From a virus (lineage: Duplodnaviria > Heunggongvirae > Uroviricota > Caudoviricetes), in IMG/VR virus record IMGVR_UViG_2675903425_000020: DNA of 11,975 nucleotides, one strand, 5' to 3'. Below, piece by piece: positions 477 to 8,112 of this stretch. The notes beneath the pieces are model-generated. The model was not told where the DNA came from. It was given only the letters and a program-made list of their open reading frames with translations, and ran no database searches. The stretch's first letter is position 1. Each line of letters opens with the position of its first letter. Position numbers and translations under genes: made by a program.

Positions 477-743
477 AGTGCCTTTTTCTGTCAGCGGTTC
501 TCCTTTCCAGCCAATGAGAACCGTCAGGCGCGCGCCCCGTGGCGGTAGCTGCAACTGACCATCTGCATCATCCAGCGTGATGGTGAGCTGGTCCGCCTCA
601 AATCCCCGGTTGTCGGTCAGTGACAGGCTCATCAGGCGCTCTGCCACGCCTGACAGCGTTTTACCCTCCGCGAGAATATCAAAATCCGGCACTTTCACGT
701 GGTCTGTGCCCTGACTGAGCAATTGCATGGTGGTGTCGGTCAT
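477..743 (-). pseudogene. Phage tail protein D (P2 gpD / Phage_GPD family), N-terminal 89 codons only; truncated by the IS30 insertion
   Basis: Minus-strand ATG at 741-743 preceded by a GGGAGG Shine-Dalgarno (plus-strand 747-757 region). Translation MTDTTMQLLSQGTDHVKVPDFDILAEGKTLSGVAERLMSLSLTDNRGFEADQLTITLDDADGQLQLPPRGARLTVLIGWKGEP contains the SLSLTDNRGFEADQL block characteristic of gpD-family N-termini. The frame then runs straight into IS30 sequence at 476 and stops at 420 inside the IS. Confidence 0.7.
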
Positions 744-900
744 CTGTTCCCTCCCTGTGCGGCATGGTCGCATGTGCGTGCGGAGGGGGTTACTGCTTTT
801 TGTTGTCGCCGTGGCGGGAGAACGGCGCAGGGGTGAGATTACGCGCGTGGTGGGTGATGATTGTTGCCGAATCATTTAACGGATACAAGGGGCTGAAGCT
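744..900. promoter_or_regulatory. Divergent intergenic region between gpD fragment and tail sheath gene; expected site of late promoter(s)
   Basis: 157 bp non-coding spacer between two divergently oriented starts (743 minus, 901 plus). I could not identify a convincing Ogr/Delta-type TGT-N12-ACA site or sigma70 hexamers by eye, so the call is positional only. Confidence 0.3.
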
Positions 901-2085
901 ATGAGTGAAACTCGTTTTCATGGTGCCCGTGTTACGGAAAGTACCGACCTGGTAACAGCGATTAATGATGTTGATTCCAGTGTTATCGGTATCGTGGCAA
1001 CGGCAGATGATGCGGACGCGGAGCTGTTCCCGCTGAACAAGCCCACACTGCTGACCCGCGTCAATGACGTGCTGGGAAAATGCGGGACTACGGGGACGCT
1101 TTATCGTGCGCTTAAGGCTATCGCAGACCAGGTGAGCACAAAAGTGATCGTCGTTCGCGTGGCTGAACACAAAGAAGAAGGCGGTAAGACGCAGGATCAA
1201 CTGGTTATCGGTGGTTCTGAATCTGACGGCAGCTATACGGGGATGTATGCGCTGCTTGTTGCAGAGCAGGATGAAAGCATCGGATACCGTCCGCGTATTC
1301 TGGCCGCGCCGGAGCTGGACACGGAGGCGGTAACAAAATCCCTGTGCGTGATTGCGGGTAAACTGCGCGCGTTTGTGTATGCCACATGTCATGGTTGTAA
1401 CACGATGGCTGAGGCGATTACCTACCGCCAGAAATTCAACGAACGTGAGGTGATGCTCTTATGGCCTGACTTCATCGCCTACAACCTGAAAAGTGGCAAA
1501 AACGAAACGTTCCCCGCGCCTGCTTATGCGTGCGGCCTTCGTGCGTACATTGACCATGAGCAGGGCTGGCACAAATCGCTGTCCAACGTTCCGGTTAAAA
1601 ATGTGCTTGGGATGTCGAGGCATGTGTTCTGGTCGTTGCAGGCCGAAGACAGTGATGCCAACAGCCTCAACAACAAAGAAATCACGACCATTATTCGTCG
1701 CAACGGGTTCCGCTTCTGGGGCAACCGCACACCGGAAACGAACGCCTACATCTTTGAGGTGTATACCCGAACCGCACAGGTGCTGGCTGATTCAATTGCG
1801 GAAGCGCAGTTTGAAACCATCGACAGTCCACTGACACCTGCGAACGTGAAGGATGTTATCAGTGCCATCAGGGCAAAACTGGATTCACTGGTTACTGCCG
1901 GGAAACTGATTGGCGCGGAGTGCTGGTATGACATCGAGGATAACAGCACCACGAATTTACGTCAGGGGCGTGTGCGTATTCGCTACAAATATACGCCCGT
2001 TCCTCCGCTGGAAGACATGGAGCTTTACCAGTCGTTTACTGATGAATTCTTTGGTCCCGCATTTGCGGTGCTGGGAGGTGCCTGA
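901..2085 (+). CDS. Contractile tail sheath protein (P2 gpFI family)
   Basis: 394-codon ORF; ATG 901 with AAGGGG upstream. Translation shares conserved blocks with P2 FI as I recall it (ADDADAELFPLNKP, KLRAF, YRQKF, WPDF, GLRA.ID.EQGWHKSLSNV, IRRNGFRFWGNRT, YTRTAQV, YKYTPVPPLE). Stop TGA overlaps the next start (ATGA at 2083-2087). Confidence 0.9.
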   Translation: MSETRFHGARVTESTDLVTAINDVDSSVIGIVATADDADAELFPLNKPTLLTRVNDVLGKCGTTGTLYRALKAIADQVSTKVIVVRVAEHKEEGGKTQDQLVIGGSESDGSYTGMYALLVAEQDESIGYRPRILAAPELDTEAVTKSLCVIAGKLRAFVYATCHGCNTMAEAITYRQKFNEREVMLLWPDFIAYNLKSGKNETFPAPAYACGLRAYIDHEQGWHKSLSNVPVKNVLGMSRHVFWSLQAEDSDANSLNNKEITTIIRRNGFRFWGNRTPETNAYIFEVYTRTAQVLADSIAEAQFETIDSPLTPANVKDVISAIRAKLDSLVTAGKLIGAECWYDIEDNSTTNLRQGRVRIRYKYTPVPPLEDMELYQSFTDEFFGPAFAVLGGA

Positions 2086-2597
2086 TGGCTGTACCAAAAC
2101 ATCTTCGCTTTTTTACGCTGTTTGTGGATGGTGAAAACGAAGTGGGTAAGGTGACGTCCGTCACCCTGCCTAAACTGACGCGCAAAACCGACAGCTACCG
2201 GGGTGGTGGCATGATGGGTGCGGTAAGTATTGACCTCGGCCTGGACGACTCCGCGCTTGATGCGAGCTTTGTCATGGGGGGCGCAGTTCGTGAGCTGTTC
2301 CTGAAGTATGGCGGCACGATTGACGGCACGCTACTGCGTTTTGCGGGGGAATACTACACCGATGATGAAAGCGACCTGTATGAAGTCGAAATGCGCGGAC
2401 GTGTGACGGAAATTGATATGGGGGAAGCCAAACAGGGCGAAGCCACATCACACACTTACGCCATTAAAAACACCTACTACAAGCTGAGTGTTAACGATCG
2501 CCCGTTGTGGGAGATTGACCTGCTGAACTTCATTTACCGGAAGGACGGCAAGGACATTGTGCCCGATCGCATCCGTTCCGCGCTTGGGCTTGGCTGA
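2085..2597 (+). CDS. Tail tube protein (P2 gpFII family)
   Basis: 170-codon ORF translationally coupled to FI. Contains VTSVTLPKLTRKTDSYRGGGMMG, DLGLDD, LRFAGEY and EVEMRGRVTEIDMGEAKQGE blocks matching P2 FII-type tube proteins. Confidence 0.9.
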   Translation: MAVPKHLRFFTLFVDGENEVGKVTSVTLPKLTRKTDSYRGGGMMGAVSIDLGLDDSALDASFVMGGAVRELFLKYGGTIDGTLLRFAGEYYTDDESDLYEVEMRGRVTEIDMGEAKQGEATSHTYAIKNTYYKLSVNDRPLWEIDLLNFIYRKDGKDIVPDRIRSALGLG

Positions 2598-2651
2598 TAA
2601 GTAATATGCAGGCGGCGCAGTGCGTCGCCTCTGACTGAAAGGAGTTTCCTG

Positions 2652-3017
2652 ATGAAAGAGACGAAAAACATCGATACCGAAAACACGGTAGTTACTGACA
2701 CTGTGAAAGAAACCAGTGAGCGTGGTGTAAAACTTACCCAACCAATTGAGCGAGGCGGCGAAAAAATCACGTATGTGGAGATCACCGGGGCTATTGAGCA
2801 GGCTGGATCTCTGCGAGATTTGTCGCTGTCTGATGTGCTGAATCTGAAAGCGGAATCCATGTTTACGCTGCTGTCACGCGTGACATCACCGCGACTGGAT
2901 GAAGTGACGATCAAAAAAATGGCATCCCGTGACTTTATTCAGTTATGTGTGGTTGCCGTAAATTTTTTGAGCGGTGCGGACTCTGGCGGGAAGAACGAAC
3001 AGGCGACGGAAGCCTGA
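2652..3017 (+). CDS. Tail assembly chaperone gpE (P2 E family)
   Basis: 121-codon ORF with AAAGGAG Shine-Dalgarno at about 2638-2644; position between tube and tape measure genes; contains slippery heptamer T_TTT_TTG near its 3' end. Confidence 0.8.
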   Translation: MKETKNIDTENTVVTDTVKETSERGVKLTQPIERGGEKITYVEITGAIEQAGSLRDLSLSDVLNLKAESMFTLLSRVTSPRLDEVTIKKMASRDFIQLCVVAVNFLSGADSGGKNEQATEA

Positions 3018-7201: not shown

Positions 7202-7210
7202 AGTACATAA

Positions 7211-7249
7211 AGCCATCGATATTTCTGTCGATGGCTTTTTCTTTTTATT
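7211..7249 (+). terminator. Rho-independent terminator downstream of the acetyltransferase gene
   Basis: 9-bp perfect stem AGCCATCGA (7211-7219) / TCGATGGCT (7228-7236), 8-nt loop, followed by TTTTTCTTTTTATT (7237-7249). It overlaps the stop codon of the convergent tfa copy on the minus strand. Confidence 0.7.
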
Positions 7250-7613
7250 GTGGGGCGACTGGCCACTCAACATCCGCTGCTACTGTTGTATCAACACGAT
7301 TCAACAATACCCGATATGTCTTCCATGCAGCCAGTAACGATGCCTCTTCCTCCGTCGCAATATCCAAATCTACGGCATCCTGAAGTGGCGCAATATGCTC
7401 ACTGGCTACCTGCATCAGGCTGTTTTTTGTTTCTTCTGCCTCCCGTACCCGAAACAGTTTTTCTGCTTCTGCATCTTTCGCCCAGGATGTGCCGTTCCAC
7501 TTCTGACACTCTCCATCCGGCGACAACCAGGTAACATTTTCCGGTAACGGACCGAGTTCAGAAATAAATAACGCGTCGCCGGAAGCCACGTCATAAACCG
7601 TTTTACCCCGATG
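7245..7613 (-). CDS. tfa: Tail fiber assembly protein Tfa, C-terminal portion (copy A; 5' end lost in N-run)
   Basis: Minus-strand translation ...[122 protein letters not shown], close to the C-terminal two thirds of lambda Tfa as I recall it. Stop at 7245-7247. Confidence 0.75.
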
Positions 7614-7663
7614 NNNNNNNNNNNNNNNNNNNNNNNNNNNNNNNNNNNNNNNNNNNNNNNNNN
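7614..7663. other. Assembly gap (50 N) inside the tfa region
   Basis: Run of 50 N flanked on both sides by about 240 bp of near-identical (about 96 percent) tfa sequence. Confidence 0.95.
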
Positions 7664-8112
7664 GCATCCTGAAGTGGCGCAATATGCTCACTGGCTACCT
7701 GCATCAGGCTGTTTTTTGTTTCTTCCGCCTCCCGGATCCGGAACAGTTTTTCTGCTTCTGCATCTTTCACCCAGGCTGTGCCGTTCCACTTCTGAAACTC
7801 CCCTTCCGGCGATAACCAGGTAACATTTTCCGGTAATGAGCCGAGTTCAGAAATAAATAACGCGTCGCCGGAAGCCACGTCATAAACCGTTTTACCCCGA
7901 TGATCTTCAACGAGATGCCACGATGACTCATCACTGTTGAAAACAGCCACGAAGCCAGCCGGAATATCTGGCGGTGCAATATAGGTACTGTTTGCTGGCA
8001 GACCTGTATGAGGCGGAATATATGCGTCACCTTCACCAATAAATTCATTAGTTCCGGTCAGCAGATTATAAATTTTTATGGTCCGTGGTTGTTCACTCAT
8101 TCTGAATGCCAT
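7664..8112 (-). CDS. tfa: Tail fiber assembly protein Tfa, N-terminal portion (copy B; 3' end lost in N-run)
   Basis: Minus-strand ATG at 8110-8112 overlapping the stf stop (TAATG). Translation [149 protein letters not shown]... is nearly identical to the lambda Tfa N-terminus. Confidence 0.8.

Follow-up and report, generated by a model that had tools for sequence, protein, structure and literature searches.

The tail genes of phage P2 (genus Peduovirus) are collinear, with FI-FII-E-E'-T-U-D reading together with V-W-J-I-H-G, as a preliminary description of the present locus had stated and as we confirmed in the P2 record. In the records of P88, phiSM and PhiR44_2, the genes are instead ordered as D on the minus strand, FI to U on the plus strand, an accessory slot, and tfa, H, I, J, W and V on the minus strand. 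The full prophages of E. coli 493/89 and 55989 have the same inverted layout, and it is shared by Klebsiella Reipivirus and by Serratia phage KSP20. P88 is inducible by mitomycin C and forms plaques (PMC5285337), and phiSM is released spontaneously and lysogenises K-12 (PMC6456863). Because plaque-forming phages share the arrangement, it is a lineage feature, which is how the preliminary description itself proposed to tell such a layout from a rearrangement.

Here we compare this layout with a window of DNA of 11,975 nt, the whole stretch that was analyzed. The closest phages, P88, phiSM, PhiR44_2, 500465-2, P884B11 and Chuche, belong to the genus Xuanwuvirus of the Peduoviridae. Window positions 476-6478 align to the P88 relatives without a break, including the divergent D/FI junction, at 91-97% nucleotide identity (94.2% to P88, 96.8% to 500465-2). 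The slot after U differs: in P88 and phiSM it is occupied by a DNA invertase and an invertible fiber segment, in the window, as in 493/89 and 55989, by an acetyltransferase. More distantly, the inverted F operon is found in Klebsiella phage ST16-OXA48phi5.4 (Reipivirus; sheath ~70% identical) and in KSP20, of which only fragments have been sequenced (sheath ~68% identical). Both belong to other genera and hosts than the window and have other slot cargo (a DUF262 gene in Reipivirus).

Gene content of the window and its match to prophage Sp13

The features of the window are collected in Table 1. In the contiguous sequence 477-7613, the order is D(-), FI-FII-E/E'-T-U(+), acetyltransferase(+) and tfa(-). 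Pfam and PHROG support confirms the earlier reading of an FI-FII-E-T-U block on the plus strand with a D-like gene upstream on the minus strand. It was also correct that no D-like gene follows U in the window and that tfa, from 7245, is convergent with the block. The upstream D is present, but merely as an 89-codon stump cut by IS30; the 151-aa open reading frame at 420-875 overshoots the real gene at both ends, and RefSeq labels the stump "phage late control D family protein, incomplete". The claim that no N-run interrupts the region holds for the two junctions (700-950 and 7150-7400) but not for the span 477-8112, which contains the gap in tfa.

Table 1. Features of the 11,975-nt window
Feature	Position	Strand	Support or remark
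IS30 3' end, transposase C-terminus to 469	1-476	+	Matches IS30 annotated in O157 493/89
D N-terminal stump, 89 codons of ~366	477-743	-	PHROG 52 and 4456; Sakai ECs_2646
D-FI spacer, 157 bp	744-900		TGT-N12-AGA dyad at 804-821
FI, tail sheath	901-2085	+	Pfam Phage_sheath_1, Gp18_domIII_N, Phage_sheath_1C; PHROG 23
FII, tail tube	2085-2597	+	Pfam Phage_tube, E = 1.3e-47
E, tail assembly chaperone	2652-3017	+	PHROG 103; RefSeq ORF "GpE family"
E', tail assembly chaperone, -1 frame of E	ends 3181	+	P2 E+E' -1 frameshift annotation
T, tape measure, pseudogene	3168-5971	+	Pfam PhageMin_Tail
U, tail protein	5984-6472	+	Pfam Phage_P2_GpU, E = 1.5e-38
Predicted sigma-70-like promoter of acetyltransferase moron	6549-6577		Promoter scan
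Hexapeptide-repeat acetyltransferase moron	6629-7201	+	AT-rich (34% GC); weak Pfam Hexapep, PHROG 2154
Hairpin, 13-bp stem, between convergent units	7209-7238		Terminator scan
tfa 3' part, Sp13 tail-fiber assembly gene, contig end at 7613	7245-7613	-	Pfam Caudo_TAP
Scaffold gap, 50 N	7614-7663		Inside tfa
Separate lambdoid (Sp8-type) contig	7664-11185	-	99.94% identical to Sakai Sp8
tfa 5' part, lambdoid	7664-8112	-	Within Sp8-type contig
Side tail fiber stf, lambdoid	8112-11033	-	Within Sp8-type contig
Two small contigs, lom and end of J, another lambdoid prophage	11218-11975	-	

Within E, a slippery heptamer, T TTT TTG, can be read off the sequence at 2963-2969; the P2 E/E' heptamer is likewise TTTTTTG. 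The acetyltransferase is named "serine O-acetyltransferase" in RefSeq, and the hairpin downstream of it is likely a bidirectional terminator.

Positions 1-7613 are 99.987% identical to prophage Sp13 of E. coli O157:H7 Sakai, with one mismatch and no gaps. This prophage, which we take to be the equivalent of CP-933T in EDL933, is annotated there as a "P2-like phage" (NC_002695.2, 2593039-2614158). Both copies have the IS30-cut D stump, the 2804-bp T pseudogene (ECs_2640 in Sakai), the acetyltransferase and the same tfa allele. They differ in that the Sakai tfa continues into IS629, followed by partition and replication genes, whereas the window contig ends within tfa and has been scaffolded to a lambdoid contig. 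In matching finished genomes, integration is beside the leuZ-cysT-glyW tRNA cluster; the window itself starts inside IS30.

Relative to the intact P88-type phages, the window copy is a remnant. The end of the repeat annotated as "IS30 partial" in Sakai Sp13 maps to window position 476, and P88 homology begins at the same position. Compared with 493/89, a 1-bp deletion at 5123 makes T a pseudogene. With D cut and T frameshifted, this copy does not qualify as a complete functional phage and is dead. In the Sakai copy, IS629 interrupts tfa and H to Q are deleted, and Sp13 has been reported to be without most morphogenetic genes (PMC2669165). The window element thus belongs to the P88-like group by descent, not as a working phage. 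Sp13 is a known defective prophage and the divergent lineage has already been described (genera Xuanwuvirus and Reipivirus). Accordingly, of the "native architecture of an undescribed P2-related lineage" that had been offered as one alternative, "native" is right and "undescribed" is not. Overall, positions 1-7613 are very probably the tail-gene remnant of Sp13, from a P88-like branch in which the F operon was inverted once, anciently, and became fixed.

Lambdoid contigs beyond the gap in tfa

The sequence to the right of the 50-N gap has a different source. The Sp8-type contig also contains the end of lom, and two further gaps occupy 11186-11217 and 11487-11536, while isolated Ns occur at 10830 and 10848. 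The last segment, 11218-11975, is 100% identical to loci of FORC_044 and CDC#03-98 that lie 0.5-1 Mb from the Sp8-type piece, and only 91% identical to Sp8. Tail-fiber genes do lie downstream on the opposite strand, as had been described, but 7664-11033 is a lambdoid tfa-stf-lom segment, not the H gene of this prophage. Similarly, the exclusion of scaffolding is justified for the D/FI and acetyltransferase/tfa junctions but not for the fiber genes across the gap.

The join between the Sp13 and Sp8-type sequences is probably a scaffolding artifact through the repeated tfa gene, because none of 5426 complete genomes shows this adjacency (none covers at least 80% of the window). The two contig ends do not abut; they share 239 bp of tfa (7375-7613 and 7664-7902, 94.6% identical), and the end at 7613 falls within a run of ~85 bp over which the Sp13 and Sp8 alleles do not differ. 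The overlapping tfa reading frames 7603-8112 and 7245-7691, considered as a frameshift or partial duplication, are explained by the N-run. A candidate recombination junction near 9623, where homology to H of 493/89 ends, reflects ordinary fiber mosaicism within the Sp8-type contig.

The IMG/VR contig L010, which has no Ns, likewise runs from Sp13 into Sp8-type sequence, by way of one hybrid tfa. It places the adjacency in a second assembly and in that respect counts against an artifact.

Homologous recombination in tfa could in principle have fused Sp13 to an Sp8-type prophage, whether on the chromosome or on a molecule that had excised or was replicating, and the clean allele switch inside tfa of L010 is what such an event would leave. 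Given that Sp13 excises, replicates and is packaged at a low level despite having no head genes (PMC2669165), exchange between prophages is plausible. Nevertheless, we consider such a fusion improbable. Apart from the missing adjacency in complete genomes, the Sakai tfa copies are co-oriented and ~950 kb apart (Sp13 at 2.60 Mb, Sp8 at 1.65 Mb), so that a 950-kb deletion would be needed, and the overlapping contig ends of the window do not form a single hybrid gene. Both these ends and the allele switch of L010 fall at runs that are exactly the same in the two alleles, as expected of breaks in a de Bruijn graph, and the true continuation of Sp13, the multicopy IS629, is a dead end for assemblers. 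Since its allele switch sits in the ~85-bp run identical in both alleles, L010 itself reads as a chimera. A real tfa-mediated recombinant of a P2-like and a lambdoid prophage, perhaps carried on an excised replicating molecule, is thus very unlikely; if true, it could help explain how Sp13 DNA is packaged without head genes of its own. The case holds little that is new for discovery and serves as a caution for sequence scans: short N-runs in repeated prophage genes can make unrelated prophages resemble one element.

Origin of the inverted F operon

Compared with P2, the window lineage has the same gene set, and a putative Ogr-type dyad lies at the same distance upstream of FI. In P2, however, the operon is collinear and contains D, whereas in the window FI to U is inverted and D is transcribed separately; the proteins are 31-49% identical. 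In IMG/VR, all 65 loci that have a D hit and an FI 54-100% identical show the window order in a single orientation, while P2-type FI loci have the P2 order in 9 of 9 cases. Of 5426 complete E. coli genomes, 1359 (about a quarter) have an uninterrupted D/FI junction, and the U-acetyltransferase-tfa junction is uninterrupted in 495.

Because gene order tracks this split in the sheath protein, the best reading is that the F operon was inverted a single time in the distant past and that the inversion became fixed in a deep clade of the Peduoviridae. A literature search for an explicit account of F-operon inversion (Xuanwuvirus, KSP20, P2-like) found none, so we infer the event from gene order and divergence; in a paper on Burkholderia P2-like phages, "inverted" refers only to insertion-sequence repeats. 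Under this model, the F operon (FI, FII, E/E', T and U) would have been inverted once, long ago, relative to the other late genes, leaving D and ogr on the opposite strand. Fixation of the inversion would then have made D(-), FI to U(+), accessory slot and tfa, H, I, J, W, V(-) the working norm. Set against the type phage P2 the order seems rearranged, yet in a large sister clade it is fixed and normal.

A very unlikely alternative is that FI to U came from a foreign myovirus and entered the genome in reverse orientation. Phage genomes are mosaic, and the fiber and tfa genes do have a separate history (G 95% and H 65% identical to P2). FI, FII and U, however, have diverged from P2 to the same extent as their flanking genes D, V, W and X (42-49% identity), and in P88 identity to P2 stays level even across the breakpoints (D 49%, FI 46%, FII 42%, U 46%, V 47%, W 44%). 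In addition, D and FI identities rise and fall jointly across 17 loci, and the pF-type dyad retains its P2 distance to FI.

A recent inversion of FI to U, with or without the moron, in this genome or its immediate ancestors is extremely unlikely. One inversion of the P2 layout does give exactly the observed order, as had been pointed out, but the fit is to P2 and not to an event in this genome, since the same order is native to P88, phiSM, PhiR44_2, Reipivirus and KSP20. Free phages carry both junctions in identical form, and so do complete genomes numbering from hundreds to over a thousand; the order follows the sheath-protein split down to 54% identity, in one orientation throughout. A search of the block boundaries in the window and P88 for inverted repeats and recombinase sites found nothing flanking FI to U; in P88, long inverted repeats are found only around the fiber segment. 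A 15-nt pair at 641-655 and 5938-5952 falls inside the coding regions of D and T and does not enclose the block. An invertase-driven segment of the Gin/Cin/Pin/Hin type was also rejected, as there are no crossover repeats and 65 of 65 loci have one orientation.

Finally, local misassembly at either junction, which the preliminary description had kept as an alternative and in favor of which one can cite what is plainly a gapped draft scaffold, has a negligible probability given the collinearity with finished genomes: positions 1-7613 match the Sakai chromosome with a single mismatch, and 1359 and 495 complete genomes, respectively, have the two junctions uninterrupted.

A conserved dyad in the D-FI spacer

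The D-FI spacer is near-identical in P88, phiSM, PhiR44_2, 55989 and 493/89. In 17 of 17 diverged spacers, a dyad TGT-N12-A(C/G)A is kept, with 62-68 nt to the ATG of D and 91-97 nt to that of FI; the corresponding distance to FI for the P2 pF dyad, counted from the sequence, is 91. Hexamers resembling -10 elements occur in the window at 764-769 (minus strand) and 856-861 (plus strand), symmetric about the dyad center at 812.5. These features suggest that the spacer is a putative bidirectional Ogr-type late promoter. The mismatch in the window dyad (AGA versus ACA) counts against this model: exact TGT-N12-ACA is absent from the spacer, and its only match in the window is at 8200-8217, in the lambdoid contig. 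Since one-mismatch matches occur at chance level across the whole window (58 found, 58.7 expected), support for the dyad comes from its conservation and position.

The geometry of the spacer matches the annotated pP/pO and pF sites of P2. At pP/pO, a shared activator site (3057-3087) lies between divergent starts at 3016 and 3127, ~55 nt each way; these starts are experimentally mapped according to the record annotation, whereas the D/FI version is inferred from sequence alone. By analogy, the inverted layout may work because the F operon forms a late transcription unit by itself. The single dyad, ~55 nt from a putative start on each side, could drive both FI to U and D, and the strong hairpin at 7209-7238 would end both convergent units. 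The lineage possibly solved the problem of an orphaned D with one bidirectional late promoter serving both units, similar to pP/pO of P2, and the conserved single dyad is the one modestly interesting by-product of this analysis.

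Gene content and identity of the element

Positions 1-7613 of the window match Sp13 of E. coli O157:H7 Sakai, a defective prophage annotated as a 'P2-like phage', at 99.987% identity (1 mismatch, 0 gaps). The element is already in annotated public records: the Sakai annotation lists a D fragment (ECs_2646) truncated by a partial IS30, then FI, FII, E and a 2804-bp T pseudogene (ECs_2640), followed by U, an acetyltransferase ORF and a tfa remnant running into IS629. Past IS629 lie partition and replication genes, and H, the baseplate genes and the head genes are absent. Sp13 is described as missing most morphogenetic genes, yet mitomycin C treatment leads to its excision and replication (Asadulghani et al., 2009, PMC2669165).

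Features of the Sp13-derived part of the window
Feature	Coordinates	Strand	Basis
IS30	1-476		
D remnant proper (89 codons)	477-743		
D-like ORF	upstream of FI	-	ORF listing, profile searches
FI, tail sheath	901-2085	+	ORF listing, profile searches
FII, tube	2085-2597	+	ORF listing, profile searches
E, chaperone	2652-3017	+	ORF listing, profile searches
T, tape measure (split ORFs)		+	ORF listing, profile searches
U	end 6472	+	ORF listing, profile searches
Hexapeptide acetyltransferase, AT-rich (34% GC)	end 7201	+	ORF listing, profile searches, composition
tfa, convergent with the + strand block	from 7245	-	ORF listing, profile searches

T is split because a single base is missing at 5123 relative to the intact copy of O157 strain 493/89; this is the same pseudogene as ECs_2640. 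A 229-aa ORF in another frame (5298-5987) overlies the T 3' end and matches phrog_38463 at 2.5e-84, a family that may have its source in mis-framed tape-measure fragments. The chaperone frameshift signal is still intact in this dead remnant: positions 2963-2969 form the slippery heptamer T TTT TTG, in frame for a -1 shift into E', whose stop is at 3181, and the P2 E+E' frameshift uses the same heptamer. The acetyltransferase moron region (6549-7238; RefSeq name serine O-acetyltransferase) begins with its own sigma-70-like promoter (6549-6577), and a strong hairpin with a 13-bp stem (7209-7238) separates the convergent units. The slot after U differs in cargo: the acetyltransferase occupies it here, an invertase in Escherichia phage P88 (Xuanwuvirus, Peduoviridae), Z/fun in P2, and Reipivirus has DUF262 genes there.

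Distribution of the inverted order

The P2 record carries V-W-J-I-H-G and then FI-FII-E-E'-T-U-D-ogr on one strand. P88 is instead annotated as D(-) / FI FII E E' T U(+) / invertase(-) / invertible fibre segment / H I J W V S R ... (-), and its match to window positions 476-6478 is a single piece that spans the D/FI junction. The P88-type order also occurs in the records of Citrobacter phage phiSM and Escherichia phage PhiR44_2, in the complete prophages carried by O157 493/89 and by E. coli 55989, and in Klebsiella phage ST16-OXA48phi5.4 (genus Reipivirus), with a sheath ~70% identical. In a Serratia KSP20 fragment, a gpD-like gene (-) adjoins a gpFI-like gene (+). Working phages are among these: a KSP20-like Serratia prophage releases particles, P88 is induced by mitomycin C and forms plaques (PMC5285337), and phiSM, which lysogenises K-12, undergoes spontaneous release (PMC6456863).

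Of 5426 complete E. coli genomes, 1359 carried the D/FI junction in one piece (601-bp probe) and 495 the U-acetyltransferase-tfa stretch (1351-bp probe). We also surveyed 80 IMG/VR loci with a sheath alignment, 66 with sheaths 54-100% identical to that of the window and 14 with P2-type sheaths (~50%). D(-) lay upstream of FI(+) in every one of the 65 loci with a D hit in the former group, where I-J-W-V, if found, were on the - strand downstream; the P2 order was seen in all nine D-hit loci of the latter.

The preliminary description had favoured a rearrangement, while allowing that multiple intact, inducible prophages with the same order would make it a lineage feature. Given the working phages, the complete genomes and the IMG/VR loci, the order belongs to a lineage. 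Local misassembly as its cause is contradicted by the gapless match of positions 1-7613 to the finished Sakai genome and by the complete genomes in which the two junctions are contiguous. Nor is the lineage undescribed, as had also been considered, since the layout (P88, Xuanwuvirus, Reipivirus, KSP20), like Sp13, is already in annotated public records; our literature search found no explicit published description of an F-operon inversion. The proposed single inversion relative to P2 stands as evolutionary history but not as an event in this genome.

Product names in the phiSM record (OR565851.1, Citrobacter phage Shae_phiSM, 2294-4745) look shifted: the 1110-bp D gene carries the name 'ogr/Delta-like zinc finger', the sheath gene (1185 bp) that of 'late control gene D protein'. 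The phiSM virions are siphovirus-like according to a 2019 paper, yet the genome has sheath and tube genes. In the intact Sp13-type prophage of 493/89 (locus L002), tfa and the fibre gene H are separated by a macro-domain gene (19839-20741) that 55989 and P88 lack, and D and ogr by a 'YecA family protein' gene (8875-10014). The latter is possibly a host gene that was captured or duplicated; in Sakai, chromosomal yecA flanks Sp13.

Origin of the layout and a candidate late promoter

Identity between P88 and P2 proteins is similar to the left and right of the breakpoints (D 49%, FI 46%, FII 42%, U 46%, V 47%, W 44%, X 48%), and D identity and FI identity co-vary across 17 loci. With this even divergence and co-variation, a single event that inverted the F operon in place, in the common ancestor of a deep clade, fits the sequences better than import of FI..U as a foreign module. 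We rejected an active invertible segment because the inverted repeats suggested for the block boundaries were found flanking FI..U neither in the window nor in P88, whose long inverted repeats occur only around the fibre segment, and because relatives carry the block in one orientation only.

The D-FI spacer of the window, 157 bp long, has nearly the same sequence in P88, phiSM, PhiR44_2, 55989 and 493/89. It holds TGTTGTCGCCGTGGCGGGAGAAC, within which TGT-N12-AGA lies at 804-821. When we aligned the spacers of 17 loci (sheath identity 54-97%), this sequence was the sole strongly conserved block. Each spacer (17/17) carries one TGT-N12-A(C/G)A, at a distance of 62-68 nt from the start codon of D and 91-97 nt from that of FI. 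The corresponding distance from P2 pF to FI, counted from the sequence, is 91 nt. P2 transcribes its F operon from a dedicated Ogr-dependent promoter, and in the divergent P2 pair pP/pO the annotated starts, 3016 and 3127, are 56 and 55 nt from a shared activator-site centre. In the window, -10-like hexamers sit symmetrically about the dyad (GATGAT, 856-861, +; GACCAT, 769-764, -), placing its centre (812.5) ~55 nt from each putative start site. Such a single dyad, midway between divergent D and FI and with symmetric hexamers, points to a possible pP/pO-like late promoter, bidirectional and shared, that would serve both D and FI..U.

Scaffold gaps and foreign fibre genes

The divergent and convergent order set out in the preliminary description is real, as judged from ORFs and profiles. 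However, only a stump of D remains, T is disrupted, and the fibre genes come from outside the Sp13 element. The stated absence of N-runs is true of the D/FI and acetyltransferase/tfa junction intervals but not of the whole span, which includes 50 N at 7614-7663. The window has two more gaps, 11186-11217 and 11487-11536, and single Ns at 10830 and 10848. N-run lengths are not true distances: 32 N take the place of 261 bp of Sp8 (a reference to which the flanking piece is just 91% identical), and 50 N that of ~30 bp in 100%-identical references.

The left flank of the 7614-7663 gap ends within tfa, and the right flank takes up the same gene again 239 bp further back, as another allele (94.6% identical). 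Positions 7664-11185 match tfa-stf-lom of the lambdoid Sakai prophage Sp8 at 99.94%; Sp8 lies at 1.65 Mb in Sakai and Sp13 at 2.60 Mb. Positions 11218-11975 are 100% identical to another lambdoid prophage; in FORC_044 and CDC#03-98, this locus and the Sp8-type piece are 0.5-1 Mb apart. None of the complete genomes covered 80% or more of the window, which is a draft scaffold with gaps. Small contigs strung together, originating from two or more distinct lambdoid prophages, make up its right third.

Alignment of the tfa alleles places the left contig end inside an ~85-bp run identical in Sp13 and Sp8, and the right contig start at the start of another such run, a pattern typical of assembly breaks at repeats. 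A real recombinant joining the Sp13 block to Sp8-type tfa-stf would agree with L010 (IMGVR_UViG_2534682255_000015), an IMG/VR contig without Ns in which, at 7633-7960, the one continues into the other through a hybrid tfa. However, L010 switches alleles inside the same ~85-bp run, and because Sp13 truly continues into the multicopy IS629, we consider this contig probably an assembly chimera stored in the viral database and a real recombinant very improbable.
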